The notes under the pieces are model-generated. The model made no database searches. It was given only the letters and a program-made list of their open reading frames with translations, and had not been told where the DNA came from. This document shows, piece by piece, positions 2,528 through 40,821 of a stretch of 44,600 nucleotides of DNA. Numbering within the stretch: the stretch's first letter is position 1; each line of letters starts with the position of its first letter. The stretch spans positions 1 through 44,600 of the forward strand of contig CAYWZD010000003.1 in the NCBI GenBank assembly GCA_964462755.1, written 5' to 3'. Both the position numbers and the translations under genes were made by a program. Source of the DNA: an uncultured Victivallales bacterium (GTDB lineage Bacteria; Verrucomicrobiota; Lentisphaeria; Victivallales; UBA1829).

Positions 2528-3343
2528 TCACGGATATTCGCCGACGCCATGAGCGGTGCTGTAACGGTTCGTCGCAAAATTAATCCGGACCGTCGGATCG
2601 GCATTGGCCATGTTCGCATTCACACCGAAGCAATAATCGATCCGCTTGGTGAAAAGCGACCAATTTCCGTCGGTTCCGGTATTGGCGCCGATGGTCCCGG
2701 TACTGTAATTCATATATCCCCGGATGATTCCATAGTAGGTATACATGGGAGAGGAAACCTTGCCGGCGGAACCATCGGCGTGCACAATGTTCGCGCAATT
2801 GTTATGGCGGTTTCCGATCGGATAATTCGTGATGGTGCCGATGGCCTGTCCCCGGTTGCCGTCTTCATCGCTGTCGCCCGCGAGAATCAGTTTCGAAGGC
2901 ATGATCAGGCTTGACAACTTGAGATCGGAGTACAATGTCTCGTTCAGGCCGATGGAGAGGAGATTCTGATCAAACCTGAATTGGCTTCCCCATACAGGAG
3001 TCAGCAGCGACTGGTTGACTTTGCTGGACGGACAGAGGAAAGGCTTTATCACCGACAGCAGTTTCGAAACACTCCCGGTCGTCTGCCAGTCTCTGATGAA
3101 ATAAGGTCCGAACACATATATTCTGTAGGAAGTCGGAGCAGGCGGCGGCAGGTAGTCCCTGTAGTCCAGCGCATATCCCTGATAACCCAGACCGATGCTT
3201 TTGACCAGATTCAGGCAGGCAGTGGTGCGGGCCGATTCCCGGGCACGATTCAGGGCCGGAAGCAGCATCGCCGCCAGAATCGCAATGATCGCAATCACGA
3301 CCAGGAGTTCTATTAATGTGAAATTCTCTCTCGGTTTTCTCAT
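2528..3343 (-). CDS. Prepilin-type N-terminal helix protein, H-X9-DG family (pseudopilin-like)
   Basis: N-terminus [37 protein letters not shown]-terminal [12 protein letters not shown] (H-x9-DG). RBS GGAGGG sits 5-10 nt upstream of ATG 3343, which is preferred over the ORF-track start 3355. Confidence 0.9.
3239..3322 (-). repeat. Dispersed ~84-nt repeat encoding the prepilin helix (copy 1 of 4)
   Basis: Encodes [26 protein letters not shown]. It shares a 27-nt identical run (ttcacattaatagaactcctggtcgtg) with the copy at 31953-32036. Confidence 0.8.
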
Positions 3344-7907: not shown

Positions 7908-9770
7908 TCAGCGCTCCTTTCCGCCGGAGCGTTGAACAGAATCCGGCGACAATGCTTTTTGAAGGGTCAGGATATGGCGGATCATCTCCAGACGGAACAC
8001 GTCGAGATTGGCCGTTTCCATCGGGGTCAGCGCCAGAAAACGGAGCGCCTTCTTCCCGGCATAATAAAGATCCGTATTCTTCGGATCGGCCGCGGCTTTC
8101 CGGGCAAGCTGCTGGAGAAGCGTCGCATAACGGATGTCGTCGATGGCCGCACGGAATCCCTCATATTGGAGGGTGTCGATCAAACCGTCCGCGGAGGGAT
8201 AGACGACGGCAAAGGCGCGGAATCCGGTTTTTCCGGTGTTCTCACACCAGATATTGGGCCCGCTTCCTTCGAGGAAGTGATAGTTGCATGTGCCGTCGTA
8301 GTCCGCCTGATACAGATCCATGCCGTGAGACCGGCGCATATAGTCCGGATTTTCGGGACCCGTATGCGGGTTGGCGTAATTCGTAATGCGGTTTCCCATC
8401 ATGTGCCACTTCCGGGCGCTGTCCCTGGAAAGGGTTCCCGCATAGTTGGCAAAATCCTCGTTGTAACCGCCGTATTGAAGATGGCGGTCCTTGGCTGTGG
8501 AAAGAATCTTCATGCCGCGCTCATGCGCCACTTTCCACAGGGGACGCTGTCCCTGAAGGAACTTCATGGAAGGCTCGTCCCATCCAACCGGATAAACCAG
8601 AATGTCTTTGCCCATCACTTCGCGGATCAGGGCCAGTTGAGCATCCATGTCCCGATAGAATTTCTCATCGTATCCGGGCGGACGCTTTTCCGGCGGCTGG
8701 GCGATCAGATACCAGGAAATCAGATTGATTCCTCCCAGCAGGACATCGTGCGGAAATCCGCATTTCTTCATCAGAAGCAGATTTTCGCGGTAGAGACGAT
8801 TCGCCGTTTCCTTCGGAAGTTTGTTCCGTGGATTGGGAGTATCCACGAGCGGATAGGCGAGATTGTGTTCCAGCATGTTTCGATACATGATTTCGCGGCG
8901 TTTCAGGACCAGATCGAAATTGCCGTCCGCCATGCGGAGCTCCTCCACGATCGGCGGCATATACATGGAAACATAGAATTTCTTGTCGGGATCGTATTGG
9001 GTGCCCGGCTCCGGCAGAAAAAACGGCAATACACGAACAGCCAGGGAAAGAGTCTCCAGCGTCTTGCCCCCGGCCTTCAGGGTCAGCGTCCCGGAATAAC
9101 GACCGGGCACGGTGTCCTTCGGAAGGCGGACCGTCAGGAAAAAGCGCTTACGGACACCGGGCTCCAGAGAAAACACGGTCAGCCGGGAAGCATCCCGAAC
9201 CGGAGCCAGCACATAATTGAAGCGGCCGTATTCGAGTTCTTCCGGATAACTGACCCAGAGATATCTGTCGCCGACCCGGAGAAAGTTGTCCTTCTTCACC
9301 GTGTCCGTTTTCAGCAGGGCTTCATCATGGAGAAGAAGCTCCGGGACCAGTTCCTTTCCGAGCGGGTCGGCGAAGTAGGAACTCCAGGCGGTCCCGGCCT
9401 GATACCAGTAATGAACGATGCGGAGATCAATCGCGAACGCCGGGATGGTGTTTTTGCCGTCGGAAAGAGGGGAGACTTCGAAGACCGCCTGTTTTTCCAT
9501 CTTTACCGGGAACAGCAGAAAGGCGGCGCTGCCGATCTCATTTCGGGCGGTCAGAATGGACAGCGTCTTTCCGGTGCGTCCGTCACGGAGGGGTTCTCCG
9601 GGCAGATGGCGGTAAGGAGAAAACGCCGGGATTTCGACGCTGAAAACGGCGCCGCAGGGGGCATCCGCGCCGGAAACGCCTTTCAACTCGGGGTAAAGCG
9701 AAAGCGGGTTTTTTTCCGACGCCGCCAGCCAGAAAGGTACAAAGAGAAGGAATGAGAGAATGTATTTCAT
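7908..9770 (-). CDS. Secreted putative glycoside hydrolase (DUF4091/GH123-like; family assignment tentative)
   Basis: Start moved to MKYILSFLLFVPFWLAASE (signal peptide, RBS AGGAGA). Motifs VGWDEPS and IDDIRYATLL recalled from DUF4091-type proteins. Confidence 0.75.
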   Translation of the reverse strand: MKYILSFLLFVPFWLAASEKNPLSLYPELKGVSGADAPCGAVFSVEIPAFSPYRHLPGEPLRDGRTGKTLSILTARNEIGSAAFLLFPVKMEKQAVFEVSPLSDGKNTIPAFAIDLRIVHYWYQAGTAWSSYFADPLGKELVPELLLHDEALLKTDTVKKDNFLRVGDRYLWVSYPEELEYGRFNYVLAPVRDASRLTVFSLEPGVRKRFFLTVRLPKDTVPGRYSGTLTLKAGGKTLETLSLAVRVLPFFLPEPGTQYDPDKKFYVSMYMPPIVEELRMADGNFDLVLKRREIMYRNMLEHNLAYPLVDTPNPRNKLPKETANRLYRENLLLMKKCGFPHDVLLGGINLISWYLIAQPPEKRPPGYDEKFYRDMDAQLALIREVMGKDILVYPVGWDEPSMKFLQGQRPLWKVAHERGMKILSTAKDRHLQYGGYNEDFANYAGTLSRDSARKWHMMGNRITNYANPHTGPENPDYMRRSHGMDLYQADYDGTCNYHFLEGSGPNIWCENTGKTGFRAFAVVYPSADGLIDTLQYEGFRAAIDDIRYATLLQQLARKAAADPKNTDLYYAGKKALRFLALTPMETANLDVFRLEMIRHILTLQKALSPDSVQRSGGKER

Positions 9771-9786
9771 GATGTCTCCTGACAAA

Positions 9787-10512
9787 TTATTCGTATAAAG
9801 CGTTTCCATACTGCTGATTGGCAATATTGGTCAACCCCTGACTCAACGAAGGGTTGGCCTTTCTGGCCTCGATATGTCCGTCCGTGAAAAGGGCCTCGAC
9901 GGAAGTGTCGTGCCGGAAATCAAGATATCCGGCGCTGTATGCGGTATGGGAAAGACGTTCGAAAACATTGCTGCCCTTGCCGTCGGCCATCTGAAGGGTG
10001 CTGGAAGGTTTTTTGATGGAAACAGGACGGAGGGCGGGCAGCAGAGTGCCGGTCGTCATGTTGGTCGTGCCGTTGGAATTGATCTGCGGATGGACGGACT
10101 TGTTGATGTTGTAAAAGCTCCAGCCGAGCCAGCCGGTTTCGGTGAAGTCGCTCCGCCCCCCGCAGCGGTAGACATTGCCGCTTCTGGGAAACTCGAACGG
10201 GGTGCGAACCTTTCCGAAAATATATGGCGAAAGAAAATTGAAGTAATAGGTCGTACCTCCCTGATAGGACATCGACGGACAATAGTATTCCTTGTTGTCG
10301 GCGCAATAGTATGTGGATGCCAGCGACCACTGTTTCAGGTTGCCGGCACAGGAGGAGCGGTAGGCCATCTGGCGTGCCCGGTTCAGTGCCGGGAGAAGCA
10401 TTCCCGCCAGAATTGCAATGATCGCTATCACAACCAGCAATTCTATTAATGTAAATTCCCGCACCCCAATCCCGCATGGATTCAACCTCCGGAAAGTTCT
10501 GTTCATCCTCAT
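9787..10512 (-). CDS. Prepilin-type N-terminal helix protein, H-X9-DG family
   Basis: [49 protein letters not shown]-terminal [21 protein letters not shown] before ATG 10512 is preferred over the ORF-track start 10635. Confidence 0.9.
10372..10455 (-). repeat. Dispersed prepilin-helix repeat (copy 2 of 4)
   Basis: Encodes [28 protein letters not shown]. The nucleotide sequence is alignable to the other three copies. Confidence 0.75.
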
Positions 10513-14222: not shown

Positions 14223-15023
14223 ATGAAACGCCTCACAGCCATTCTCCGGAACCGAATCGCAAAGGGCGCGGTCTCACGGACCAGAACTCCCCGAAAATTC
14301 ACATTGATCGAACTCCTTGTCGTGATCGCCATCATCGCGATTCTGGCCGGAATGCTGCTGCCGGTGCTGAGCCGTGCGCGGGAAACGGCCCGTGGCGCGG
14401 CGTGCAAAAACAACCTGCGGCAGCTGGGGCAACTCTGGGATAATTATGCTCTGGACAACAACGAGTATGTGATTCCTTTCCTGCCGTATTCAAGCAAGGT
14501 CAGGACAGACGGCAACCCCTGCTGGTGGTTCGAATTCATGATTATGGAAGACATCATTCCCGGAGCGTCCAAGGGAGGCAAGACTCTTGTTGCGACGGGC
14601 GCCCGACAGATTCTCACCTGCCTTTCCGATGACAGCGAAACCGGCGGGCCGTATCAATTTTTCAGCTCTTTCAAATGTCCCTTGAGTTATGCTTATCTCT
14701 ATGCGACAAGACCCGGTTTCACGAGCGCATCCGGGGATTACCTTCTCAAGCTGTCGCAGATTCGGAACAATGCAAGCAGAGTCCCGCTCTTTGCGGATTG
14801 CTGGAAATGGTGGAAAAATCATCCGGACGCAACCAGTAAAACAACCTATTTCCCAAGACTCACGCCCACATACCGCAATCTGGGATTGAACCGGGCGCAT
14901 ACGAGAGGCATGAACATGGTATTCATCGCAGGAAATGTCGGGGAAGAAGCGGAAGTCATTTGCCGTCAGGCTTCCGCTCAATATGATCTCTGGAATGATG
15001 GAACGACTCTGACCTATAGATAA
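14223..15023 (+). CDS. Prepilin-type N-terminal helix protein, variant H-X9-AG motif
   Basis: 25-aa basic leader, then [30 protein letters not shown]-terminal [12 protein letters not shown] (Ala replaces the family Asp). RBS AAGGAG. Confidence 0.9.
14298..14381 (+). repeat. Dispersed prepilin-helix repeat (copy 3 of 4)
   Basis: Encodes [28 protein letters not shown]. Confidence 0.75.
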
Positions 15024-18381: not shown

Positions 18382-18402
18382 CCTCTCCCCGAGTTTTACA
18401 GC

Positions 18403-18448
18403 AGGATTCCGGGACTTTCGAAAGATGTCCCGGAATCCTCTCTTTTAT
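18403..18448 (+). terminator. Rho-independent terminator of the 15043-18381 gene
   Basis: Perfect 12-bp stem AGGATTCCGGGA / TCCCGGAATCCT, followed by CTCTTTTAT. Confidence 0.75.
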
Positions 18449-18455
18449 AAAAATT

Positions 18456-18529
18456 ACATTTTTGTATATACGTAATTCAAAATCACATTTTTGTATTCTT
18501 CACACTGTTGGAAATGCACCGTTCCGGAA
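18456..18529 (+). promoter_or_regulatory. Conserved upstream element, copy 1 (two ACATTTTTGTA boxes 29 bp apart plus GTTCCGGAA 36 bp further on); candidate enhancer/UAS
   Basis: ACATTTTTGTA at 18456-18466 and 18485-18495, and GTTCCGGAA at 18521-18529. The boxes and spacings are identical at 40652-40725. Confidence 0.6.
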
Positions 18530-18550
18530 AGGGAGGTGCAATTTTTTTTT
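18515..18550 (+). terminator. Second intrinsic-terminator-like hairpin
   Basis: Stem TGCACC / GGTGCA with a 14-nt loop, followed by A plus a run of nine T. Confidence 0.55.
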
Positions 18551-18611
18551 CACTCGCCGAACCCATGAAATGAAACGATTCCATTCTTTTTCCATTGTCT
18601 TTTTTTCAAGC

Positions 18612-18627
18612 TGGCATGATTTTTGCT
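18612..18627 (+). promoter_or_regulatory. Sigma54 (-24/-12) promoter of the secretin operon
   Basis: CTGGCATGATTTTTGCT against the consensus YTGGCACGrNNNTTGCW. GG and GC have canonical spacing, with a single mismatch (C to T). Confidence 0.65.
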
Positions 18628-18811
18628 AAGTATCAAAACATAGCCTTGAAAAAACAGGTCAACGGAAAAAAGATGAAGGAGGTGTCATTCGGGAAAACGG
18701 AAAAAACAGAAAAGAAGTGTGACGGATTCGCATATCTGTCCCGTCTGGGGGAAGTTGTAAAGAGATCAAAATATTCCGTAAATGGACATAACTCCGGGAA
18801 ATGGAACTGCA

Positions 18812-20182
18812 ATGGCAACGAAAGATCAATTGAAAAAAAAAGCGCTCTATTGTATACTGTATACATTCATCCTGCTTGCATCGGGAGGCTACGCGGCGGA
18901 GACACGGCAAATCCATCTGATCCAAGACGATGCACAGCGGAAAATGGTCACGAAGATTTATAAGCTCAAGTATGTCCAGGCGACGGACATACGGCCCTGG
19001 GTGGACGCCGCGGCAAAACGGTATACCGACCAGTCCACGCTTTGCCGGATCAGCATTCCGACGCTGAGCGAATGCTGGGTCGGCGTCACCACGGCCACTG
19101 AAATGATGCCCTACATCGACGACCTGGTCGCAAAGCTGGACCGGCCCGGAAAAAAAGGACCGGACGGCTCCCTGATCGAAGGCACCGGCGTCACCAAGGG
19201 AATCTATTATCCCAAATACACCTCCACCGCCATGCTCCAGAAACTCTGCCACATTCTCACCTCGCCGGTGGGAGCCGTCTACGACACCAACAGCACGCTC
19301 TACTGGAAAGACGACAAAACCTACAGCGACGGCATTCTCGAATGGGCGAAATATTTCGACCAGCCGGCCGCCCAGACGAACCTGACGCTGAAATATTATC
19401 TGGTGCGGGAATCGAAACTGCGCGATCTCGGCATCGACTATCTGGCATGGAAAAACGGTCCGGGGCTCAATATGCTGGATTTCGCATACGACGCGGGACG
19501 CGCAACCTTCTCCCGCGCAACCAGCCTCGCAACCCATGCGGCCACATGGGGATACGGATCGTTTCTTGTGGCGCCCGCGTTCGACATGAGTTTCGTCCGC
19601 ATGCTCCAGCAGTCCGGTTCCGCGGAAGTGATGGCCACGGCGAACGCAACCTTCATCTCCGGTGCCGAATCGAACCTGACGCTCGATCCCGTCCTCCAGA
19701 TGATCCAGAAGGATGGGGACGACACCACTTCGGTCATGGGATACATCTCCCCCTCGCTGCTGCCCTCCTTCAACGTGAGGGTCGGAGGCGTCATCGGACT
19801 TGATCCGGAAGCATCAATCCTCAAGGACAGCGGACAGTTCGACATGAACGGCTCTTTCTTTACGAAGAACAAGGGCAATCTTCTTCTCAACTACGCCCTC
19901 TCTTCCAACGACGTCACGGAGGTCGACAACAACGGAGCCCCGGTGGAAACCGTCTGCACCCTTGCCAGCGATACGACTCTCGCTTTCGGGGACGAGGTCA
20001 TCCTCCAGCGGCTCACCAGAAACTCGAAGACGGAGGAAACCATCGGCGTTCCCTTCCTCTGCGAGGTTCCGATCCTCAAATATCTCTTCGGGACCACAAC
20101 CACGATCAACGAGAAAATCTATATCTTCGTGACGGTGAAAGCGAATCTTGTCAACCCGGATGCACCCGTTCCGGTCAAGTAA
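18812..20182 (+). CDS. Compact secretin-family outer-membrane channel protein, paralogue 1
   Basis: Signal peptide MATKDQLKKKALYCILYTFILLASGGYA (alternative ATG at 18782). Two NolW/Secretin_N-like repeats (KIYKLKYVQATDIRPWV...IDDLVAKLD). Secretin domain ends GVPFLCEVPILKYLFGTTTTINEKIYIFVTVKANLV. Confidence 0.85.
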   Translation: MATKDQLKKKALYCILYTFILLASGGYAAETRQIHLIQDDAQRKMVTKIYKLKYVQATDIRPWVDAAAKRYTDQSTLCRISIPTLSECWVGVTTATEMMPYIDDLVAKLDRPGKKGPDGSLIEGTGVTKGIYYPKYTSTAMLQKLCHILTSPVGAVYDTNSTLYWKDDKTYSDGILEWAKYFDQPAAQTNLTLKYYLVRESKLRDLGIDYLAWKNGPGLNMLDFAYDAGRATFSRATSLATHAATWGYGSFLVAPAFDMSFVRMLQQSGSAEVMATANATFISGAESNLTLDPVLQMIQKDGDDTTSVMGYISPSLLPSFNVRVGGVIGLDPEASILKDSGQFDMNGSFFTKNKGNLLLNYALSSNDVTEVDNNGAPVETVCTLASDTTLAFGDEVILQRLTRNSKTEETIGVPFLCEVPILKYLFGTTTTINEKIYIFVTVKANLVNPDAPVPVK

Positions 20183-20202
20183 CCCCAAGGAAGCATTGAA
20201 AA

Positions 20203-21819
20203 ATGAAGTTCAACACCCCCTCTGTCCTCTCTTTTCTTCTCGCCGCGCCGGGCCTCCTTTTTGCGGGCGGGGAGCAAACCATCAACCTCAACGGTCAGCC
20301 GGATCAGGGCGTCAACAATCCGACGGGAACCTACGCGCCCTCCAATGTGTCCGCGAAAATCAACATCAACCTCGATAAGAACGAAAAGAGCGTCCATTTC
20401 ATCCGCGACAACAACGACCCGTATGTCGTCACCAGGGCCTACGTGCTGAAAAATGCCGATCCCTATGTCGCGTGCGGCATTCTCCGCTCGCTCATACGTC
20501 CGACCATCAAGACCAATCCCGCCACGGTCGACGCCATCAAATACAACGACGGGACAGGGATCGTGATGGTCTCCGCCGAAGAAAACTTCTTCCAGGACCC
20601 GGGAACCGGCATGAGCATCGAATCCATGGTCAACATGATCGACATCAACAAAATGGTCTTCTCGGACGGAAGGAAGAGATATGTCTACTTCTGCAAGGCC
20701 AACACCGCCGCCACCATGCTCAAGATGATCCGGCGGGTCGGCCTCCTTTCCGCAAACGGCGTCGAGTCCGTCACCTACGGCAGAATGCCGAAAGAATACC
20801 AGGTCACCATCGATGAAACGCACAACGCCATTTTCTTCAACGCCTCCGGCTTCAACATTTCCTCCTCCCGGGCCATGCTTGCGGAATACGACGTTCCCGC
20901 CTGTCAGGGAACCCTCGACTACAAGCTGATCGAGGTTTCGGACGAGAATGACACCAAGCTCGGCCTCGACTTCCAGAGCTGGAAAAACAACGACGGCATC
21001 TCCCTCTTCTCCGCCGGCGCCGTTTTCTCCCGTTCCGGCAGAACCAACAACTACTCGATGCTGAACTTCAACCCCAAGTGGAATTCGAAATACATCGATT
21101 TCCTGATGGCCACAAGCCATGCGAAGATCGTTCATTCCGGCTCCATCACCATTCAGGACACCTGCCCGATGAACATCTCCGTGTCCTCCGGAATGATGGG
21201 GGTCGTGGTCACCCCGGTCGGAGACAAGGGCGAAGTGCTCGGCGAAGCGATTGCCTCGGCCTCCAACGCGGCCGTCAAGGTGCTCAGACAGATTCCCGCG
21301 AGAGTCGAGGCGATGCCGCTCTCCCAGGGAACTCTTCAGGAGATCAAGCCGACGGAAGGCTTCTCCTTCAACGCCGCCATTCTGCCGTCGCTCGGAAGCA
21401 CATCGGCCTCCCTCAACGTCGCCATCAGCGGGGTCTCCCTGATCGGCTACGACAGCACCGGCGCGCCCCGCATGGTTTCCTCCTCCTATGTCTCCGATGT
21501 TCAGGTCGGCACGCAGAAGGACTTCATGATCGGCGGCATCACCAAGTCAAAACTCATCCGCACGGTCAACGGGATTCCTTTCCTGAAAGACATCCCGCTC
21601 CTCGGATATCTTTTCAGCACGGAAACAACCGCCATCAAGAAATCCCAGTTCATCCTGATGTGCTCCTATACGCCCGACGTCCATCCCGGCGGAAAAGACG
21701 GCTCCGCACTCATGGCGGACATCAGCAAGATCGAAGCCAAACTCAAGGAAGTCGAAAAGCATCCGACAAAAGCCCTCGGTTTCGAACAATACGGAATCGA
21801 TACGGATAAGATCGAATAA
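20203..21819 (+). CDS. Compact secretin-family outer-membrane channel protein, paralogue 2
   Basis: Signal peptide MKFNTPSVLSFLLAAPGLLFAGG. N-domain repeats. C-terminal NGIPFLKDIPLLGYLFSTETTAIKKSQFILMCSYTPDV. RBS AAGGAAG. Motifs are paralogous to the upstream gene. Confidence 0.85.
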   Translation: MKFNTPSVLSFLLAAPGLLFAGGEQTINLNGQPDQGVNNPTGTYAPSNVSAKININLDKNEKSVHFIRDNNDPYVVTRAYVLKNADPYVACGILRSLIRPTIKTNPATVDAIKYNDGTGIVMVSAEENFFQDPGTGMSIESMVNMIDINKMVFSDGRKRYVYFCKANTAATMLKMIRRVGLLSANGVESVTYGRMPKEYQVTIDETHNAIFFNASGFNISSSRAMLAEYDVPACQGTLDYKLIEVSDENDTKLGLDFQSWKNNDGISLFSAGAVFSRSGRTNNYSMLNFNPKWNSKYIDFLMATSHAKIVHSGSITIQDTCPMNISVSSGMMGVVVTPVGDKGEVLGEAIASASNAAVKVLRQIPARVEAMPLSQGTLQEIKPTEGFSFNAAILPSLGSTSASLNVAISGVSLIGYDSTGAPRMVSSSYVSDVQVGTQKDFMIGGITKSKLIRTVNGIPFLKDIPLLGYLFSTETTAIKKSQFILMCSYTPDVHPGGKDGSALMADISKIEAKLKEVEKHPTKALGFEQYGIDTDKIE

Positions 21820-21842
21820 ACCAGTCTCTCTCCACCCACCGG

Positions 21843-21882
21843 GGCAGTGAGCGGCTCTCTCTCCGCTCACTGCCTCATTTTT
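21843..21882 (+). terminator. Rho-independent terminator of the secretin operon
   Basis: 12-bp stem GGCAGTGAGCGG / CCGCTCACTGCC, 8-nt loop, then TCATTTTT. The 3' arm overlaps the last codons of the convergent AraC gene. Confidence 0.8.
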
Positions 21883-22709
21883 CGAAAATGCTTCGGCGTC
21901 TGACCGGTCATGTGCCGAACCGCCTGCGTAAAATACGACGCATTCCAGAAACCGCACCGCCGCGCCGTTTCCGCCACGGAATCCCCCGCCGCCAGACGCT
22001 CCAGAGCATGCCTCAACCGGATGGACCGCAGACACTCGCCCGGCGTTTCGCGCCGGTTCATGCGGAATGCCCTGGATACCGTTGCCCGGTGAAAGTTCAG
22101 CATTCCGCAGAGCGTTCCGGCATTGACCGACGGGTCCGCGTAATGACGTTCCGCCGCCTCCGAATAAGCACGGACAAGCTGAATATCCTTCTGGTCGGAA
22201 TTGGATTGCGCATGTCCCGCGGCAGCCAGTATCTCCACGGCGGCGGCAACCGCTTCCCGGAAAGAACCCGGCGTGCCCTGCCCCAGTGCCGTCTCATACC
22301 GGACGAAAATTCTTTCCGGACACCGTCCAGCGCCGCGAACCACCCGCGGAAATCCGAAACTCCGCAAAAAAGCGCCAGCGCCGGGACCGTCGAACGTCAG
22401 CCACCGGAGCGCAAGTCCGGATTGGTCGGGCCGGTTTTCGCGAGCCTCCTTCGGATACTGGAAAACCACGTCTCCAGCCTCGACGCTCTCCGGTTCCCCG
22501 CCGGCCAGCATGGTCCCCCTCCCCCATGAAACCCAGGTGATCTGGACAAACGGTTTGTCCTGTCCGGAACCGGTTTCATCCTTTCCGAAAGGAAGACGTG
22601 TCTCTCCCGCGGACCTCGGATAGAACGGCAGGGGCATTTCCGGAAAGCCGGGAAATCCTTTCCGCAACCTCGTATAATACCCGGTGTGCGACAAAATCGA
22701 TGTTTTCAC
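21867..22709 (-). CDS. AraC-family transcriptional regulator
   Basis: C-terminal dual HTH (SVAETARRCGFWNASYFTQAVRHMTGQTPKHFRK) with a cupin-like N-terminal half. It is divergent from the GH35 gene. Confidence 0.85.
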   Translation of the reverse strand: MKTSILSHTGYYTRLRKGFPGFPEMPLPFYPRSAGETRLPFGKDETGSGQDKPFVQITWVSWGRGTMLAGGEPESVEAGDVVFQYPKEARENRPDQSGLALRWLTFDGPGAGAFLRSFGFPRVVRGAGRCPERIFVRYETALGQGTPGSFREAVAAAVEILAAAGHAQSNSDQKDIQLVRAYSEAAERHYADPSVNAGTLCGMLNFHRATVSRAFRMNRRETPGECLRSIRLRHALERLAAGDSVAETARRCGFWNASYFTQAVRHMTGQTPKHFRKMRQ

Positions 22710-31931: not shown

Positions 31932-32747
31932 ATGAAGAGAGAAAAGAGGGGGTTCACATTAATAGAACTCCTGGTCGTGGTTTCAATCATCGCGATTCTG
32001 GCGGGACTTCTGCTTCCGGCGCTGACCCGGGCGCGCGACATGGCGAAACGCATCAGCTGTCATTCCAACGTCCGGAACCTGAACCTTTGGAACATCTCCT
32101 ATTCCAGTGATTCCGGGGGTTGGTCGACTCCTTATGCCCTGCTGGGAAAAAGATGGTATGACCTTTTCAACACGCTCGGTTATTCGGGAACAGTCTCCGT
32201 GACGGTCAATTCGAATAAGAAAAACATCAATTACATCTTCCTCAAGATGCGCTGTCCGTCGAACCGTCTGACGCAGGAAGGCGTGGTGGCTGCCCATCCC
32301 GCCGACTGGTTCAATTATTTCAGCACGATTGCCTCTTACGGACTCAACGGCAACATGGGATATACTGAATCCTCGTCGCCCCTTTCCTCGGTCAACCTCA
32401 TCAAAACCGCCAGAGTCAAACATCCATCCCGCCGTCTGGTCTTCGCCGACAAGGCGGAAGCCGTGGCATCAAGCGACCTGATGGCATGTATCGACGGCTC
32501 AAACCGTCCGATTCACGACCGTCACAACCGTTCGACTCCCATCGGTTTTCTGGATGGACATGCGGAATCGCGCGACCCGGCCAAGGTCAATCCGCTCGGA
32601 ACGGTTGTCGGTTCCTGCAATCCTTATAACAACAGCATCGTTACACCAACCATCGTATCAGGAACGCTCAATACGTCTCCCGTCGACCTCCGGTATCTGT
32701 GGGGGATGAACGGAGGCATCGGCGACTACCGTTACGATTACCCGTAA
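31932..32747 (+). CDS. Prepilin-type N-terminal helix protein, H-X9-DG family (canonical Gly at -1)
   Basis: [37 protein letters not shown]-terminal [25 protein letters not shown] before ATG 31932. Confidence 0.9.
31953..32036 (+). repeat. Dispersed prepilin-helix repeat (copy 4 of 4)
   Basis: Encodes [28 protein letters not shown]. About four fifths of nucleotides are identical to copy 1 by manual count. Confidence 0.8.
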
Positions 32748-33431: not shown

Positions 33432-34910
33432 ATGATGAACGACCGGAAAAAAGTGCTCGGCGCGTGGCTCGGCAAAGCCGTCGGAGGAACCCTTGGACAA
33501 CCCTGGGAAGGCTGCCGCGGACCGCTCGCCCTCACCTTCTACGATCCCGTCCCGACCCGGATGATGCCCAACGACGACCTCGATCTTCAGGTGGTCTGGG
33601 CCTGCCGTCTCGCGACCGACTGGAACGCGACCGTCTCCCTGAAGAATTTCGCCGACGCATGGCTGCACAATATCGGGTTCCCCTGCGACGAATACGGCGT
33701 CGTCATCCGGAACCTCAAGCTCGGTATTCCGGCCCCGTATTCGGGACGTTACGACAACTGGTTCACGGACGGCCTCGGCGGGGCCATCCGCGCGGAAATA
33801 TGGGCGGTCCTCGCGCCGGGCGATCCGGAGCGCGCCGCAAAACTCGCCGGGATGGACGCCAGCCTCGATCACGACGGCAATGGAATCTACGCAGAACAGT
33901 TTCTCTCCGCGATGGAAAGTTACGCGTTCGTGGAATCCGATCTGAATAAACTCATCGCGAAGGGACTCTCCCTGATTCCGTCGGAATCGCGTCTGCACAA
34001 GGCTCTTTCCGACACGGTTTCCTGGTGCGGAGAAGGACTCGATTTCCACGCGGTCCGGGAACGGATCATGACACATCAGGGGAGCCCGAATTTCACGGAT
34101 GTCAAGATGAACCTCTCCTTCATGGTCGCGGCGCTGCTGCTGGGCAAGGGCGATTTCGAACGAACGGTCTGCCACGCGGTCAATTTCGGGCAGGACGCCG
34201 ACTGCACCGGGGCAACCGTCGGGGCGATCCTCGGCATCATCGATCCGGATTCGATTCCCGCCCGCTGGCTGGCGCCGATCGGCCGCGCCCTGATTCTGAA
34301 TCAGGGAATCACCGGAATCCGCCCACCCGCCACACTGGACGATTTCACCGATCTTCTTATTTCCCTGCGCGAAAAACTCCGGGTGGAGGAAGAGGTGGTC
34401 CCGCCGCCCGATCTGACGGAATTTCAGATTTCCGTCCGACGTTCGGTGTTCCATCCGTGGTTCGCGCTGGACTTCCGCAAATTCAAGCCCGTTCCTGCCG
34501 AAGACGCGGAGGAGATTCTCCTTCCCGGAAATCTGGTCACGGTCGATTTTTCGGATCTTCCGCCGGAATCCCTGCTCCTGCTGGAAACGGAATTCGAACT
34601 GGAGGAGGACCGCGTCGTTCATCTGCTGGTGAACACCCCCGCCAACCTCCGCGTCTGGCTGGACGGCGAATACTGTTTCGGACGGGAAGGGGGGGAGATG
34701 GTGCCCGCGTTTCACCGTGCACAGCTCAACCAGTTCGCAGCGCCTTTCCTGAAGAAGGGACGCCACACTCTCCGGATGGGGCTGGCTCCGGCGGCGGAAG
34801 GGATGAAGTCCGCCGAACTGCTTTTCGGCATCGCGGATGAAAACGACCAGTGGTTTCCCCGTGCGTTTTACCTCAAGGGAAGGGAATCCGGAAAATGTTG
34901 TTCCGACTGA
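33432..34910 (+). CDS. ADP-ribosylglycohydrolase-fold protein with C-terminal beta-sandwich-like extension
   Basis: GGTLGQPWEG, NDDLDLQ and FGQDADCTGATVGAILG match the ARH/DraG family pattern. No signal peptide. The ATG lies 1 nt after the upstream stop. Confidence 0.8.
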   Translation: MMNDRKKVLGAWLGKAVGGTLGQPWEGCRGPLALTFYDPVPTRMMPNDDLDLQVVWACRLATDWNATVSLKNFADAWLHNIGFPCDEYGVVIRNLKLGIPAPYSGRYDNWFTDGLGGAIRAEIWAVLAPGDPERAAKLAGMDASLDHDGNGIYAEQFLSAMESYAFVESDLNKLIAKGLSLIPSESRLHKALSDTVSWCGEGLDFHAVRERIMTHQGSPNFTDVKMNLSFMVAALLLGKGDFERTVCHAVNFGQDADCTGATVGAILGIIDPDSIPARWLAPIGRALILNQGITGIRPPATLDDFTDLLISLREKLRVEEEVVPPPDLTEFQISVRRSVFHPWFALDFRKFKPVPAEDAEEILLPGNLVTVDFSDLPPESLLLLETEFELEEDRVVHLLVNTPANLRVWLDGEYCFGREGGEMVPAFHRAQLNQFAAPFLKKGRHTLRMGLAPAAEGMKSAELLFGIADENDQWFPRAFYLKGRESGKCCSD

Positions 34911-37480
34911 CGTTTCTGTTATTTCTCGTAATCGCCGTGCCGAGCCTTCCGGCGCAGGAGACGGTGGAGGTCGGTCATTTCTTCAAGCCCGACAAGATGG
35001 ACTCCGGCTACACGAGCGAACTGATTCATTTCATGGAAAAGAACCCGGATATCCGCGTGGAACAATGGGCCGGCTTGATCCTGCCGGGCGGAAATGCCGG
35101 ACTCATGATGTCCCTTGCCGGGAATACCGCGCCCGACATCGGATTGAGTTATTTCCACCTCATCCGGAACGAGATCAAGCAGGAATTTCTGTATCCGCTG
35201 AACGAATGGATCGGGGAAGACGCCAACAGTAACGGCCGGATCGACGACGCCGAGGCGAAGTGGCCCCGTTGGAAGGAGTTTCCGCCGATCCTGCGGACCG
35301 TGGCCACTTCCGGAGGCAAAATCTACGGGCTTCCCCTGCCCGTGAAAAGCATCTGCGCCGTCCTCTACCGCACGGATTTTGTGGAAATGGCCGGACTGGA
35401 CCCAAACCATCCGCCCGAAACATGGGACGAGTTCACGGTCTGGTGCCGCCGTCTCACGGATGCGAACAAGACCATTCCCGGCGCCCTCACGCAGAACGGA
35501 CAGCGCGCCATCCTGATTCCTTCCAACGGATTCCTTTTTCTGCCGTGGATTCAGTCGGCGGGCGGGGAGCCGATCGTGCAGTACCGGACCAGTCCGAAAA
35601 CAGGCAGAAAATACTGTTTCGCGCAGAATGAAACGGTTTTTCGCACCCCGGACGGCGAGGACCTCTCGCGGGAGCCCTCCGATTGGCGTTGCAACTTCGA
35701 CTCCCCGGAAGCGTTTCAAGCACTGGACTTCCTGTATCGTCTGCGCTGGGAAAAATGGGTCAGCATCGACGGAAAACCGGTCAGCCTGAAGGAGGCCCGG
35801 AAACAGGGGCTTCATTTCAAGGAAAAAGACATCGTGACGGGCGTGGCCCGGAGCTCCAGCGGACAGCGCGGCGAAAGCGGGTTCGAACTGCTTTCGCGCG
35901 GGGAAGTCGTCATGCTGATCGGCATGGTCGAAGACCTCAAACAGGTCGGCACGCAGGCCAATATCGACCCGTCGCTGCTGGCATGGTTCCCCTTCCCCGC
36001 CGCGCCCGGACCGAAAGGACGCCGCGTCATTCAGACTCAGAACCATTACGCGGTCATGTACACGGGCGTTTCCAAGCGCTCCAAAAGGGAACGGGACGCC
36101 GTCTGGAGAACCCTCAACGCCATCACCGGCGACCGCATCGTGGAGCGGGATGTGGCGTCCAAGGTGCTGGAGGGCATGGCCCGCTTCGTCTCGCCGTCGG
36201 ACCTGAAACGGTTCGGCTATGAGGAATACATCCGGGACATTCCGCCCGCGATCAGGAAGAACTTCTCCGATCTGGAAGCGGGGAAAATCCTTTCCTTCAC
36301 CGAGCCGTGGACCGGCTACTGGCTCCTGATCGACATGGCGCTGAACAACGAATGTCTCGGCATCATGCTCGGGGCGCTCGGGGAGGATTTCGACAGCCGG
36401 GGCGCCCTCCTCGAAGTCAACCGCAAGGCGAACTCGGGACTGATGTTCGCTCTGCCGGAAAGCACCCTCGCGAAATGGCGTCCCGTCGCAATGTCGATCC
36501 TGATTCTCGTCCTTCTGGCAACCGCGTTTCTGATTTTCATCATCGTGAAATCTTTCCTGAAAAAACGCGCGGACGGAAGCCGTTCCGTCTACAAGGGCTA
36601 CCTGCCGCTCCTCCTGATTTTCCCCGCCGTTCTCCTCATTCTTCTGTGGCAGTACTATCCGCTGGGACGCGGTCTGCTGATGGCCTTTCAGGATTACCGG
36701 GTGACCGGCAATTCCACTTTCACGGGACTGGACAACTTCATCAATCTGGGGCTTGACCCTGCCTTCTGGAAAAGCATCGGGCGGACCGTGTATTTCGTCA
36801 CGCTGAATATGCTTTTCGCTTTCACGGCGCCCATCATTCTGGCGATCATGCTGACCGAGATCAAGCACCTCAAAATTCTCTTCCGCACGCTGTTCTTCCT
36901 GCCCCAGATGACCAGCGGAATCGTCATCGCGCTGATGTGGAAACTCATGTACAACCCGACCCCCGCGGGCTTCTTCAACCAGATGATCGCGTATCTGAAC
37001 TATCTGCCGTTCGTGAACATCCGGCCGCAGGCATGGCTTCAGGACCCGTCGCTGGCGATGATCTGCTGCATCATCCCGACCGTGTGGGCGTCGATGGGAA
37101 TGTCCAGCCTGCTGTATCTTGCGGCGCTGCACTCCATCCCGCCGGACCTCTACGAAGCGGCCGAGGTGGACGGCGCGGGCTTCCGTTCAAAACTCTGGAA
37201 CATCACACTTCCCACGCTGATGCCGCTGATCATCATCAGTTTCGTCGGGACGTTCATCGCCACGTTCCAGAACATGGGCAACATCTTCCTCCTGACGTTC
37301 GGAGGACCGGGCGAAGCCACCACCGTGATCGGGCTGAAAATCTGGGTGGAGGCCTACGTGAATCTCCGTTTCGGCATGGCCACCTCCATGGCGTGCCTTC
37401 TCGGAACGCTGCTGATCGGGCTGACCTACGTGCAGATCCGTTTCCTTGGCAAGGTGGAATACAAACGGGCGTCGGACTGA
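34895..37480 (+). CDS. Fusion of a family-1 extracellular solute-binding protein and a MalF/UgpA-type ABC permease
   Basis: Signal/anchor MLFRLTFLLFLVIAVPSLPAQE. SBP-like ~520 aa. A TM segment begins near 36475. The permease carries the EAA loop LYEAAEVDGAGFRSKLWNITLPTLMP. The ATG overlaps the upstream gene by 16 nt. RBS AAGGGAAGGGAA. Confidence 0.85.
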   Translation: MLFRLTFLLFLVIAVPSLPAQETVEVGHFFKPDKMDSGYTSELIHFMEKNPDIRVEQWAGLILPGGNAGLMMSLAGNTAPDIGLSYFHLIRNEIKQEFLYPLNEWIGEDANSNGRIDDAEAKWPRWKEFPPILRTVATSGGKIYGLPLPVKSICAVLYRTDFVEMAGLDPNHPPETWDEFTVWCRRLTDANKTIPGALTQNGQRAILIPSNGFLFLPWIQSAGGEPIVQYRTSPKTGRKYCFAQNETVFRTPDGEDLSREPSDWRCNFDSPEAFQALDFLYRLRWEKWVSIDGKPVSLKEARKQGLHFKEKDIVTGVARSSSGQRGESGFELLSRGEVVMLIGMVEDLKQVGTQANIDPSLLAWFPFPAAPGPKGRRVIQTQNHYAVMYTGVSKRSKRERDAVWRTLNAITGDRIVERDVASKVLEGMARFVSPSDLKRFGYEEYIRDIPPAIRKNFSDLEAGKILSFTEPWTGYWLLIDMALNNECLGIMLGALGEDFDSRGALLEVNRKANSGLMFALPESTLAKWRPVAMSILILVLLATAFLIFIIVKSFLKKRADGSRSVYKGYLPLLLIFPAVLLILLWQYYPLGRGLLMAFQDYRVTGNSTFTGLDNFINLGLDPAFWKSIGRTVYFVTLNMLFAFTAPIILAIMLTEIKHLKILFRTLFFLPQMTSGIVIALMWKLMYNPTPAGFFNQMIAYLNYLPFVNIRPQAWLQDPSLAMICCIIPTVWASMGMSSLLYLAALHSIPPDLYEAAEVDGAGFRSKLWNITLPTLMPLIIISFVGTFIATFQNMGNIFLLTFGGPGEATTVIGLKIWVEAYVNLRFGMATSMACLLGTLLIGLTYVQIRFLGKVEYKRASD

Positions 37481-37496
37481 AAGGAGCAAACGCAAT

Positions 37497-39647
37497 ATGA
37501 GTCTCATCGGCGACATCGGACGCAAAACCTTCAAGAACCGCTGCATCATGGCCTCGATCTACCTCTCGCTGTGCCTGATGGGATTGACCATGGTGGTCCC
37601 GTTCCTGATCACGATCACCGGAAGCGCGTCCAACGACTTCGACTACGAACGCTACAGCCCGGTTCCACGTTATCTCTGGTCGAAAAAAGACCGCTTCGTC
37701 AAGGCGCTGGTCCCCTATTTCAACCAGACCCGGAACTGGCAGAAACAATTCGCCGCTTATGCCCCCGGCCTTCCATCCCACTGGACGTCCTGGTCCTCGA
37801 TCGGACGCGACCGCGAAGGCGTGGACCGTTTCGCGGAAAAATACCGGCGTGAAAGCAATCCCGTAAGAGCCGCCGACTACGCGGAATTCACGGCGACCTA
37901 CCCCCTTTCCGACTGCGTGGTCTTCGCCCGGAACATGGACACCGTTTCCTTCCTGATCTCGGACTATTCGGAAAAATATAAACGCCTTCATCCGGAAGAC
38001 TCTTCCTCCGGGACCAGCCTTCAGCTCAAGGCGCTTGCCCTGCTCGGGAAGGAATGGCATATCCCGTTCCGGAGTTTCTACGACATCAGCATGAACGCCG
38101 AGATGCTCTATCCGATGGATTTTCAAGGCTGGTTTCCCGATCGGACCAGTCCGAAATACCAGGCATACGAACGGTTCAAGGAAGCCGCCGCGGCACAGCG
38201 TTTCACGCCGGGCGTCCAAAGCGCGTGGAAGAAGTTCCTGAAAGAAAGAAATTATGCGGGTAATCCCGTTTTCCCAGTCGAAAAAGACGCCCCCGCCGAA
38301 CTCCGCAAGCTCTGGCTTGAGTTCCACAAACAGATTGTCCCGGCCTCGCCCGCGGTTCCCTACGCCATGCGCGCCGTGTGGTATGCGTATCTGGAATCCG
38401 AGGATAACGCCCTCCGCAATAACGGAAGGAAAATCAACATTTCCGAATACAACCGCCTCTGCGGCACGAACTACGGGTGGCTCGCGAAAACGCCCTTCCC
38501 GATTCCCGATTCTTTCCCGGCGGAAATCCGGGATGTCTGGACCCGTTTCCGGCAGGAAAACTATCCCCTGCGGCTGGTCAAAATCACGCCTGCGCCGGAA
38601 CTCGACCGCGAGTTTCAGGCCTTCGTCGGAAAGAACATCCGGTCTCTGAAAACGCTCAACCTCCTGCTGGGGACGGACTACCGTTCCATGAAAGAGCTGA
38701 AGTTGTCCGCCGAACCGCCGGCAGGGAACTCGCCCGCCGTCACCAACCGTCGCGACCTCTGGAAAAATTTCGTGAAGACGCTTCCCGTCGGGCGCAAGGA
38801 ATTCCATTCCTCCGAAATGGCCTATCAGAAGTTCCTTCTGAAAAAATACGGTTCTCTGGAGGAGATCAACCGGGCGCAGGGCACCCGTTGCCGATATGTC
38901 GAAGAGATTTTTCCGCCGTTCATGGACGCCTATACGGTCACGTTTTCAAAGATCGGAAACGCCATGGCGTTCTTCCCCGTCTTCGAGAACTACGCGATGG
39001 TATCGGACTATCTGCTGTTCAACGGGAACGCGGTCTGGGTCACGCTTCTCCTGATCGCCATGACCCTTTTCTTCACGCTCACGGTCAATCCGCTGGCGGC
39101 GTACGCGCTGAGCCGGTTCAACCTGCGGTGCCGTCAGCAGATTCTGATCTTCATGCTCGCAACGATGGCGTTCCCGGCCATGGTCAGCGCGATTCCGGCG
39201 TATCTGCTGATGCGCGACCTCGGACTGCTGAACACCTTCTGGGCGCTGGTGATTCCCGGCGCGGCCAACGGCATGAGCATCTTCATCCTCAAGGGCTTTT
39301 TCGACAGTCTGCCGATGGAGCTGTTCGAGGCGGCGACGATCGACGGAGCCAGCGAATTCCAGATCTTCCGGGTTGTGGCGATGCCGCTCGTGAAGCCTAT
39401 TCTGGCGATCAACTGCCTGAACGCGTTCATCGCCGCCTACAACGGCTGGGAATGGGCGCTGATCATCTGTCAGGACAAGTCCATGTGGACGATCGCGGTG
39501 TGGCTGTACCAGGCCAGCATGAACTGGTCGTCGACGCCGTGGATCATCAGCGCGGGCTTTGTGCTGGCGTCCGTTCCGACACTCGCGGTGTTCATCGCCT
39601 GCCAGAAGATCATCCTTCGGGGGATCATCATTCCCAGCATGAAGTGA
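37497..39647 (+). CDS. MalG-type ABC permease with a ~455-aa extracytoplasmic insertion between TM1 and TM2
   Basis: TM1 is IMASIYLSLCLMGLTMVVPFLITITG, followed by a long W/Y/F-rich soluble region. The C-terminal ~230 aa is a typical CUT1 permease (MELFEAATIDGASEFQIFRVVAMPLVKP). RBS AAGGAG lies 10 nt before ATG 37497. Confidence 0.85.
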   Translation: MSLIGDIGRKTFKNRCIMASIYLSLCLMGLTMVVPFLITITGSASNDFDYERYSPVPRYLWSKKDRFVKALVPYFNQTRNWQKQFAAYAPGLPSHWTSWSSIGRDREGVDRFAEKYRRESNPVRAADYAEFTATYPLSDCVVFARNMDTVSFLISDYSEKYKRLHPEDSSSGTSLQLKALALLGKEWHIPFRSFYDISMNAEMLYPMDFQGWFPDRTSPKYQAYERFKEAAAAQRFTPGVQSAWKKFLKERNYAGNPVFPVEKDAPAELRKLWLEFHKQIVPASPAVPYAMRAVWYAYLESEDNALRNNGRKINISEYNRLCGTNYGWLAKTPFPIPDSFPAEIRDVWTRFRQENYPLRLVKITPAPELDREFQAFVGKNIRSLKTLNLLLGTDYRSMKELKLSAEPPAGNSPAVTNRRDLWKNFVKTLPVGRKEFHSSEMAYQKFLLKKYGSLEEINRAQGTRCRYVEEIFPPFMDAYTVTFSKIGNAMAFFPVFENYAMVSDYLLFNGNAVWVTLLLIAMTLFFTLTVNPLAAYALSRFNLRCRQQILIFMLATMAFPAMVSAIPAYLLMRDLGLLNTFWALVIPGAANGMSIFILKGFFDSLPMELFEAATIDGASEFQIFRVVAMPLVKPILAINCLNAFIAAYNGWEWALIICQDKSMWTIAVWLYQASMNWSSTPWIISAGFVLASVPTLAVFIACQKIILRGIIIPSMK

Positions 39648-39659
39648 GCCGGAGCTCAC

Positions 39660-40424
39660 TCAGGCGGGAATATCGACATTCGCGATAGACTCGACAACCA
39701 TGGACGGCTGAAAAGCGTATTCGGAAAGCTCTTCCCGTTTCGTGTTGCCGGATAGCACGAGGATCGTTCTGTAACCCATCTGGACGCCGCCCAGAATGTC
39801 GGTTTCCATGGTGTCGCCGATCACGGTGGTTTCCTCGGCGGAAAGCCCGATCTCCTTGCGCGCCTCGCGCATCATGATCGGACTGGGTTTGCCCAAGCTG
39901 AACGCCTTGACGCCCGTGGCGGCTTCCAGCATGGCCACGATCGCCCCGCAGCCCGGACGCATCCCGTTGGTCGTCGGGCAATTCGGGTCCGGATTGGTGG
40001 AGATCAGTTTCGCGCCCTTGAAAATCATGTTGACCGCCAGTTCGATGGCCTCCATATTCATGGTGCGTCCCTCGCCGACGATCACATAATCGGGATCGGA
40101 ATCCACCACGGCGTAACCGTTGTAGTGGAGCGCATGGAGAAGTCCGCCTTCCCCGATGACGAACGCCGTGCCGTCGGGCTTCTGCCGTTTGAGGAAACGG
40201 GCCGTTGCCATGGCACAGTTAAAGACCTGCTTTTCCGTAATATTGAATCCGAGACGGTTCATCTTGATCGTGGTGTCGCGACGGGTCCGCTGACTGTTGT
40301 TCGTGAAAAATGTGAAAGGGACTTTCCTGTCCACAAGAGAGTTGATGAATTCGCACGCGCCGGGGATGACCGTCTTACCGCGGTAGACCACGCCATCCAT
40401 GTCAATCAGAAATCCGTTTTTCAT
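39660..40424 (-). CDS. HAD-IIA (NagD-like) sugar phosphatase
   Basis: MKNGFLIDMDGVVYRG, FFTNNS, LGKPSP and IGDTMETDI. RBS AAGGAAG before ATG 40424. Confidence 0.9.
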   Translation of the reverse strand: MKNGFLIDMDGVVYRGKTVIPGACEFINSLVDRKVPFTFFTNNSQRTRRDTTIKMNRLGFNITEKQVFNCAMATARFLKRQKPDGTAFVIGEGGLLHALHYNGYAVVDSDPDYVIVGEGRTMNMEAIELAVNMIFKGAKLISTNPDPNCPTTNGMRPGCGAIVAMLEAATGVKAFSLGKPSPIMMREARKEIGLSAEETTVIGDTMETDILGGVQMGYRTILVLSGNTKREELSEYAFQPSMVVESIANVDIPA

Positions 40425-40651
40425 TCTTTTCTTCCTTTCATTCACAGGGAAACCGGATTCTTCGAGCGAACGCTTTCCGCTCATGAACCGGAAATATTTT
40501 CCTGCGAAAAAACGGAGGCGTCACGCTCTCCGTGAAAATACGCTTTTTCTTTAGCATTTTACATGCCAACCATTCCTTTTCTGCATAAAACAAGCAGGAA
40601 TCCGCTGAAAACCATAAAACGGAACGGAAGATATAAGAACAGATAAATAAT

Positions 40652-40725
40652 ACATTTTTGTAATTCATTAAATCAAAATTACATTTTTGTATCACATTAC
40701 ATCTACCGGGAACATTGTTCCGGAA
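40652..40725 (+). promoter_or_regulatory. Conserved upstream element, copy 2
   Basis: ACATTTTTGTA at 40652-40662 and 40681-40691, and GTTCCGGAA at 40717-40725. The 29-nt and 36-nt spacings are identical to copy 1. Confidence 0.6.
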
Positions 40726-40821
40726 CATCTGTCTGAATTCTTCGGATGAGACGGACCTGCCTGAAATCGGGAAAACATCTGATTTTTTTGAGAAGGTTTT
40801 TAACTTAAACGGTTCTTTGAT

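Follow-up and report, generated by a model that had tools for sequence, protein, structure and literature searches.

A predicted sigma54 promoter with a putative tandem nitrogen-type enhancer upstream of an orphan secretin gene pair in an uncultured Victivallales bacterium

The secretin gene pair and its promoter region

The window, i.e. the whole 44,600-nt stretch of Victivallales DNA that was analysed, carries two adjacent secretin-like genes on the forward strand: gene A (SecA, 456 aa; 18812-20182) and gene B (SecB, 538 aa; 20203-21819). Both score above the gathering cut-off of the Pfam Secretin family (PF00263), SecA with 32.7 bits vs a cut-off of 27.5 and SecB with 49.3 bits, and at 23% identity to each other they are remote paralogues. 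An intrinsic terminator (21841-21876, + strand; a 14-bp stem with 10 GC pairs, then ATTTTT) closes the two-gene unit, and beyond it lies a convergent AraC-type gene (21867-22709, - strand). SecA has an alternative ATG at 18782; since P0001, a homologue with 97% identity, has a called length of 456 aa and no record of the exact 466-aa product from the alternative start was found, the ATG at 18812 is the likelier start.

The AlphaFold model of SecA (pLDDT 69, moderate confidence) matches GspD, InvG and PilQ at E ~1e-13, and the scores of both SecA and SecB are far under every NCBIfam equivalog cut-off. Genes for T2SS/T4P partners do not adjoin the pair here, nor do they in five other cassettes; adjoining ATPase, platform and pilotin genes are likewise lacking both in the window and in the related loci L130-L137, and the pair was not found to belong, with partner genes, to a named system (T2SS, T4P, T3SS). 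All SecA relatives are from Lentisphaeria or Victivallaceae MAGs.

The window as a whole is rich in glycoside hydrolases, sugar regulators and prepilin-type N-methyl proteins. Four paralogous 5' ends encoding the prepilin-type N-methyl leader and TM segment, with 75-84% DNA identity, are found at 3215-3325 (-), 10348-10460 (-), 14295-14405 (+) and 31948-32060 (+), each in a ~270-aa protein that adjoins glycoside hydrolase or sugar-regulator genes; these we take to be the typical Lentisphaerota "pseudopilin" expansion. Two long ORFs, 34850-37480 (876 aa) and 37446-39647 (733 aa), have a C-terminal BPD_transp_1 domain, the first also with an N-terminal solute-binding domain, which means that the fusion is an unusual one or else that the ORFs were called too long.

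The gap upstream of SecA (18382-18811, 430 nt) is the longest intergenic stretch in the window. Within it, in the surrounding sequence tttttttcaaGCTGGCATGATTTTTGCTAAgtatc, a sigma54-type -24/-12 promoter, TGGCATGATTTTTGCT, occupies 18612-18627 (+), with GG at 18613-18614, GC at 18625-18626 and C as the 5'-adjacent base. Compared to YTGGCACGrNNNTTGCW it has a single mismatch, T for C after TGGCA, and its GG-to-GC spacing is canonical, the two doublets lying exactly one helical turn apart within the TGGCAC-N5-TTGCW frame. The pattern TGGCAY-N5-TTGCW is found once on the two strands of the 44.6-kb window, vs 0.03 expected, and occurs at least once in 3 of 100 dinucleotide-preserving shuffles of the window. 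By a sigma54 PWM made from 31 D. vulgaris sigma54 promoters (PMC4641369, Additional file 6), with the spacer columns neutralised, TGGCATGATTTTTGCT scores 18.9 bits, rank 1 among 89,000 positions on both strands, and this score is reached in 1% of shuffled windows. The promoter is co-oriented with the secretin genes, 155 nt from the ATG at 18782 and 185 nt from that at 18812. The first-pass annotation had described a near-consensus sigma54 promoter with one mismatch and the canonical GG-GC interval, ~155-185 nt upstream of the secretin starts and downstream of a duplicated element and T-tracts; the sequence, the pattern count and the PWM rank bear out the assignment, and the distances and upstream features are as it gave them.

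A sigma70 scan detected no sigma70-like promoter in the 18382-18811 gap, and transcription of the secretin unit is predicted to start near 18638. On the basis of the first rank by PWM, the sigma70-free gap, the tandem upstream site, and the same architecture elsewhere and in relatives, the promoter is judged likely to be genuine and enhancer-dependent; as far as sequence analysis can tell, 18612-18627 is very probably a real sigma54 promoter.

A 97%-identical locus of a related strain (L130; contig JAWDGO010000446.1, assembly GCA_032941855.1) permits a comparison of the gap. Its intergenic region is ~94-95% identical, with ~25 differing positions, and the unchanged state of the upstream activator site cores and of the 16-nt promoter counts as weak evidence, as chance alone would leave ~44% of 16-mers intact at ~95% identity. 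TGGCATGATTTTTGCT is also identical in metagenome contigs. Runs labelled RNA-Seq that contain this locus are copies of DNA metagenomes and yield low-depth contigs only.

Other features of the gap are structural. A hairpin with a 13-bp perfect stem followed by TCTCTTTTAT (18403-18439, +; from fold analysis, and kept in L130) is likely the terminator of the upstream 1112-aa gene, shielding the secretin unit from upstream transcription. Between the doubled element and the promoter is a T-tract-rich spacer (T9, T5, T7; 18540-18609), a possible intrinsic bend that could help looping; a pattern search found the IHF consensus absent from the window. TGGCATGATTTTTGCT is also centred in an imperfect palindrome of ~95 nt (18582-18675; single-strand fold z-score -3.65; kept in L130) whose core consists of perfect 10-bp arms, TTTTTTCAAG (18601-18610) and CTTGAAAAAA (18645-18654), and which may act through curvature, by forming a cruciform or by insulating against read-through. 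A direct repeat is present in the predicted 5' leader of the secretin unit, AACGGAAAAAAGATGAAGGAGGTGT at 18661-18685 and AACGGAAAAAACAGAAAAGAAGTGT at 18696-18720, that has no Rfam match. Rfam gave no family in the window and none in the 5' leader, so that no glutamine riboswitch was detected.

A doubled upstream element with a second copy in the window

Two putative activator sites lie upstream of the promoter: ATTACATTTTTGTATA at 18453-18468 (centre ~-177), which holds the exact TACATTTTTGTA core and is the same in L130, and ATCACATTTTTGTATT at 18482-18497 (centre ~-148), 29 bp after site 1. The cores themselves, TACATTTTTGTA at 18455 and CACATTTTTGTA at 18484, are 29 bp apart, and in site 2 of L130 a C to T change yields a perfect core and a better match. 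Both sites fall within the region of about 80-200 nt upstream that is expected for sigma54 promoters, and they match the 16-bp TTTACA-N4-TGTAAA site predicted for DVU1949 (Kazakov 2015, PMC4641369). DVU1949 is a one-component sigma54 EBP with predicted control of nitrogen metabolism in Desulfovibrionales (Kazakov et al. 2015, PMC4641369), its predicted targets being amtB-glnB, glnN, glnA, gltB and amino-acid transporters (PMC4641369). Its sites, which include ATTACATTTTTGTAAC, GTTACATTTTTGTAAT and AATACATTTTTGTAAT, are often paired 30-32 bp apart (PMC4641369, Additional file 4), and the motif is a computational prediction (PMC4641369).

A DVU1949-site PWM was made from the 101 published sites (PMC4641369, Additional file 4). 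The four copies of the element in the window take ranks 1-4 by this PWM, at 19.4 (ATTACATTTTTGTATA), 17.9, 17.0 and 14.0 bits (ATCACATTTTTGTATT, rank 4), a ranking that does not depend on the way the element was found. It is thus supported that the doubled TACATTTTTGTA element is the binding site of a nitrogen-control enhancer-binding protein, i.e. a putative enhancer; the first-pass annotation left the duplication unrecognised both as an enhancer and as a pointer to a nitrogen regulon.

Elsewhere in the window there is one further pair only, with cores at 40651 and 40680, likewise 29 bp apart. Its candidate activator sites are AATACATTTTTGTAAT at 40649-40664 (17.9 bits, rank 2; ~-114 from a predicted start) and ATTACATTTTTGTATC at 40678-40693 (17.0 bits, rank 3; ~-143), again 29 bp from one another, and over 50 nt this module shares 82% identity with 18447-18496. 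Adjoining this second module is a second sigma54-like promoter, TGGCATGTAAAATGCT, at 40553-40568 (-), which scores 15.9 bits (sigma54 PWM rank 2) and has ATGC, not TTGC, as its -12 element. It lies 70 nt before a gene for a HAD-IIA phosphatase (NagD-like; 39660-40484, -), the predicted second target, with a predicted start near 40542, 58 nt before the HAD gene ATG. The third-best sigma54 PWM match of the window, at 11.4 bits, is inside coding sequence. Each of the two top matches is thus 85-120 nt from a doubled element and faces away from it, and the estimated joint chance of two top sigma54 sites beside the only two doubled elements is about 2e-5. The first-pass annotation had read all other promoters of the window as sigma70-like, which the site at 40553-40568 contradicts; its further statement that enhancer-dependent control singles out the secretin operon stands as regards the secretin promoter but not as regards exclusiveness, given that the HAD phosphatase gene has the same arrangement.

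A GTTCCGGAA palindrome follows the start of the second activator site by 39 nt in both modules (18521-18529 and 40717-40725), on the promoter side in one of them and on the far side in the other. TTCCGGAA is frequent in the window, with 16 copies, but this does not account for the equal offset of GTTCCGGAA. Another sigma54-like sequence, CGGTTCTTTGATTTGCA (+ strand, near 40808, before a kinase gene), was rejected for its GG-N11-GC spacing and because the gene has a sigma70-like promoter.

Occurrence of the element in relatives and in metagenome loci

The closest non-identical SecA homologue (P0002, 46% identity) is encoded in a Victivallaceae MAG, GCA_028698975.1 (locus L131). There the gene order on one strand is PII (113 aa), AmtB (460 aa), SecA, SecB and a 157-aa gene, so that in a sister lineage the secretin pair is physically inside the glnB-amtB cluster. 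Upstream of PII is TTTACGTTTTTGTAAA, at 19.4 bits the best DVU1949-type site of the 13-kb locus, followed 135 nt later by the sigma54-type promoter sequence TTGGCACACAAACTGCTT. The 78 nt between amtB and SecA (L131:5923-6000) contain a hairpin rich in GC, CCCGGCCGGATGT-CAC-ATCCGGCCGG, that lacks a T-tract and might serve to attenuate the polycistronic transcript or to stabilise it. L005, from a second Victivallaceae MAG, has ATTACAAATATGTAAT (20.9 bits), then after 141 nt the promoter sequence TTGGCATAGGATTAGCTA and, ~170 nt further, a SecA homologue. In L129, with a PII 74% identical to the Victivallaceae PII, PII-AmtB is preceded by the exact doubled element and by the sigma54-type sequence TTGGCACGCATTTTGCTAAT. 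The sequence TGGCAT-N5-WWGCTAA is common to three promoters of this lineage.

Other cassettes are different. Most secretin paralogues have sigma70-like promoters, L133 and L136 among them, and L135 has no identifiable promoter; a DVU1949-type site was found before the secretin genes in none of these three. Neither a -24/-12 sequence nor the doubled element is conserved upstream of nine distant secretin homologues (37-41% identity), with the exception of L005. In L133 a DVU1949-type site, TTTCAATTTTTGTAAA (8561-8576, 15.2 bits), stands before an SNF-family transporter gene after the sigma70-driven secretin cassette. Several distant homologues of the secretin pair also have the sequence CCTAACA-N5-7-CT(A/T)A ~70-180 nt before the start (L001:5915-5940, L003:5820-5850, L007:975-1005, L008:5835-5865), which may represent another promoter type specific to the lineage.

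A scan of metagenome contigs for the exact pattern ACATTTTTGTA-N18-ACATTTTTGTA gave at least 120 loci, 84 of them unique among the matches listed. In these listed matches, the density of sigma54 PWM matches scoring 13 bits or more is 0.19 per kb up to 350 nt from the element vs 0.017 per kb at distances beyond 1 kb in the same loci, an eleven-fold enrichment near the element, though in a mixed locus set that includes unrelated 29-nt tandem repeats. Nitrogen-assimilation genes are downstream in 13 of the 14 classes of loci with element and sigma54 promoter among the matches listed. Six of the listed loci have the arrangement gltB-gltD-(GAF/AAA+/HTH_8 bEBP)-(two site pairs + TTGGCAC-N5-TTGC)-glnB-amtB; other listed loci have amtB-glnB, glnB-amtB, an outer-membrane protein gene and then amtB, or amtB alone. 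Two further classes of listed matches have the element and promoter before a type III glutamine synthetase (GSIII), and one listed locus has them before a gene for a UrtA-like urea/branched-chain-type binding protein; PII, AmtB, GSIII and bEBP were assigned via Pfam, except for one GSIII, which like the UrtA-like protein was recognised by eye.

The element repeatedly adjoins bEBP genes, and the encoded bEBPs are of at least two HTH types. In the gltBD-glnB-amtB loci the recognition helix of the bEBP, TERIVSYKVKKY, is nearer to that of DVU0569, for which a different motif is predicted, than to that of DVU1949; as a query, this GAF-bEBP retrieved a large and strongly conserved family, with members on contigs as long as 7 Mb. 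The recognition helix of the rumen-class bEBP, SPRMMLYKIRRL, is NifA/DVU1949-like.

Most exact-element loci among the matches listed have no sigma54 motif nearby and are either 29-nt tandem repeats or members of this rumen class, with the element upstream of a bEBP gene. In the rumen/gut class (L011, L018, L028 and 22 others; e.g. L028:7738-7778) the element lies directly upstream of a gene for a ~395-425-aa GAFTGA bEBP with the NifA/DVU1949-like helix SPRMMLYKIRRLG, and a conserved hairpin-forming leader, GTTCATCTCTCCTAGAGCTGCG..., follows the element; no -24/-12 motif is evident near the element in loci of this class. The class probably represents autoregulation in a lineage other than Lentisphaerota, judged as such from the absence of N-methyl motifs in 210 kb. 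Tandem arrays of the 29-nt unit GACATTTTTGTAATTCTGAGTGGCAGAAT, which holds the same 11-mer, are found in L015, L042, L095, L112-L114 and others; they have nothing to do with the enhancer and make up many of the pattern-scan matches.

Proposed nitrogen control of the secretin pair: mechanism, rival readings and known systems

The best explanation of these features is that the sigma54 promoter and a DVU1949-type tandem enhancer place the secretin pair in a nitrogen-stress regulon, a reading to which we assign a probability of roughly 0.75 and which is predicted from the nitrogen-regulon type of the enhancer. The sigma54 holoenzyme would sit at 18612-18627 as a closed complex. A one-component GAF-type, NifA/DVU1949-like EBP, presumably encoded elsewhere in the genome, would bind the tandem sites under nitrogen limitation and reach the promoter by looping over the T-tract spacer; in keeping with the established sigma54 mechanism, its ATP hydrolysis would open the complex for transcription from near 18638. 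The two-gene secretin unit (18812-21819) would be transcribed from 18612-18627 to the terminator at 21841-21876, and the same enhancer module would also drive the HAD-IIA phosphatase gene (39660-40484). To judge from its DNA, the bacterium seems to respond to nitrogen shortage by turning on these genes for secretin-like outer-membrane channels.

The activator itself is not a product of the window: as the first-pass annotation had noted, an AAA+ bEBP gene is absent, the 29 window ORFs giving no Sigma54_activat match and the six frames no GAFTGA, and rpoN is not in the 44.6-kb window. A full-text literature search returned nothing relevant for the motif string or for rpoN with Victivallis. To our knowledge, gene regulation in Lentisphaerota is essentially unstudied. 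RpoN is present in both of the two Lentisphaerae genomes that have been surveyed (PMC3372290, Table 1).

The targets in the window, secretins and a phosphatase, are not classical nitrogen genes, their nitrogen link being only via the glnB-amtB synteny in L131. A real sigma54 promoter whose doubled element serves a non-nitrogen regulon, with an activator that senses e.g. a carbon or envelope signal, would fit such targets, which do not include glnB or amtB, and would fit the neighbouring glycoside hydrolases and sugar regulators, and EBP families with similar Fis-type helices can differ in signal. That the signal is other than nitrogen is nonetheless unlikely in view of the Lentisphaerota-type loci L129 and L131, where motif and sigma54 promoter drive PII-AmtB and where, in L131, the cluster includes the secretin pair, and of the nitrogen-assimilation genes downstream in 13 of 14 locus classes elsewhere among the matches listed.

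The remaining readings would deny the promoter or the element its function. The -24/-12 match could have arisen by chance in an A/T-rich spacer, the doubled element then working by itself, either as an operator or within a sigma70-type promoter; the strict pattern does appear in 3% of shuffled windows, the PWM score is reached in 1%, and most exact-element loci among the matches listed are without a sigma54 motif nearby. Such a coincidence is very improbable, however, when the two top sigma54 sites stand correctly oriented beside the only two doubled elements (~2e-5), when sigma54 matches are eleven-fold enriched in independent loci (among the matches listed), when the pairing of element and promoter recurs in relatives, and when no sigma70-like promoter was detected in the gap. 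The shared module of ~85 nt (18447-18529 and 40643-40725) might instead be a mobile fragment or dispersed repeat that plays no part in regulation, as the 82% identity over 50 nt and the extra palindrome at equal offset in both copies would allow; but the core motif is kept across phyla and tied to nitrogen and bEBP genes, terminal repeats and a transposase are lacking, and the module has its promoter on one side in the first copy and on the other side in the second, which is what an orientation-independent enhancer would lead one to expect, so that we give this reading hardly any credence.

If nitrogen control of the secretin pair is accepted, one reading of its role would be an inducible outer-membrane passage for nitrogen sources, suggested by the co-transcription of a Gcw_chp gene with amtB in other lineages; the conventional alternative would be secretion of scavenging enzymes. 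A stronger form of the former holds that the pair is not a secretion machine but a nitrogen-starvation-induced outer-membrane conduit working with AmtB, the secretin fold having been co-opted by Victivallaceae to take up ammonium or other nitrogen compounds, with one paralogous cassette under an Ntr-type enhancer and others in other regulons. We regard this as a doubtful, though conceivable, conjecture.

The locus offers a concrete, testable Lentisphaerota regulon consisting of a sigma54 promoter and a tandem TACATTTTTGTA enhancer. The enhancer seems to be common to Planctomycete-like genomes (judged by contigs and genes) and Desulfovibrionales, and would extend the predicted motif across phyla. 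Orphan secretin pairs, which are abundant in Lentisphaeria without partner secretion genes, would be tied to nitrogen limitation, a first functional clue.

PilR-dependent pilin promoters exemplify sigma54 control of pili, and like sigma54-controlled secretins and pili the present locus has a sigma54 promoter before cell-envelope or secretion genes. It differs in that its enhancer is of the nitrogen-regulon type rather than that of a pilus or flagellar two-component system, and in that no other T2SS/T4P genes accompany the secretins. Sigma54 control of the "bacterial exterior" is a theme of Francke et al. (2011, PMC3162934). The outer-membrane protein gene that shares an enhancer and promoter with amtB in L027 and L116 encodes Gcw_chp (PF09694), to be compared with the PII-AmtB-secretin-secretin order of L131; this protein family is unrelated to the secretins, and a shared uptake role is hypothesis only.

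Promoters of the NtrC/NifA type (glnAp2, nifH) combine a -24/-12 sequence with tandem orientation-independent sites at ~-100 to -180, a bendable spacer and a nitrogen response, the NtrC site being TGCACC-N5-GGTGCA and the NifA site TGT-N10-ACA. The secretin promoter shares the -24/-12 sequence, the tandem upstream activator sites and the T-tract spacer, whereas its activator site sequence differs from both of theirs and the IHF consensus is absent in the window. Closest is the DVU1949 regulon, with the same 16-bp site, several published sites that hold the exact TACATTTTTGTA core, and tandem sites ~30 bp apart at 90-400 nt upstream of sigma54-promoter genes; unlike that regulon, the arrangement described here belongs to a member of the Lentisphaerota/PVC phylum, has a fixed 29-bp spacing and has a secretin pair and a HAD phosphatase as its predicted targets. 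The predicted nitrogen regulon of the secretin operon is therefore of a known, previously predicted type, and it is the link between secretins and nitrogen that is modestly surprising.
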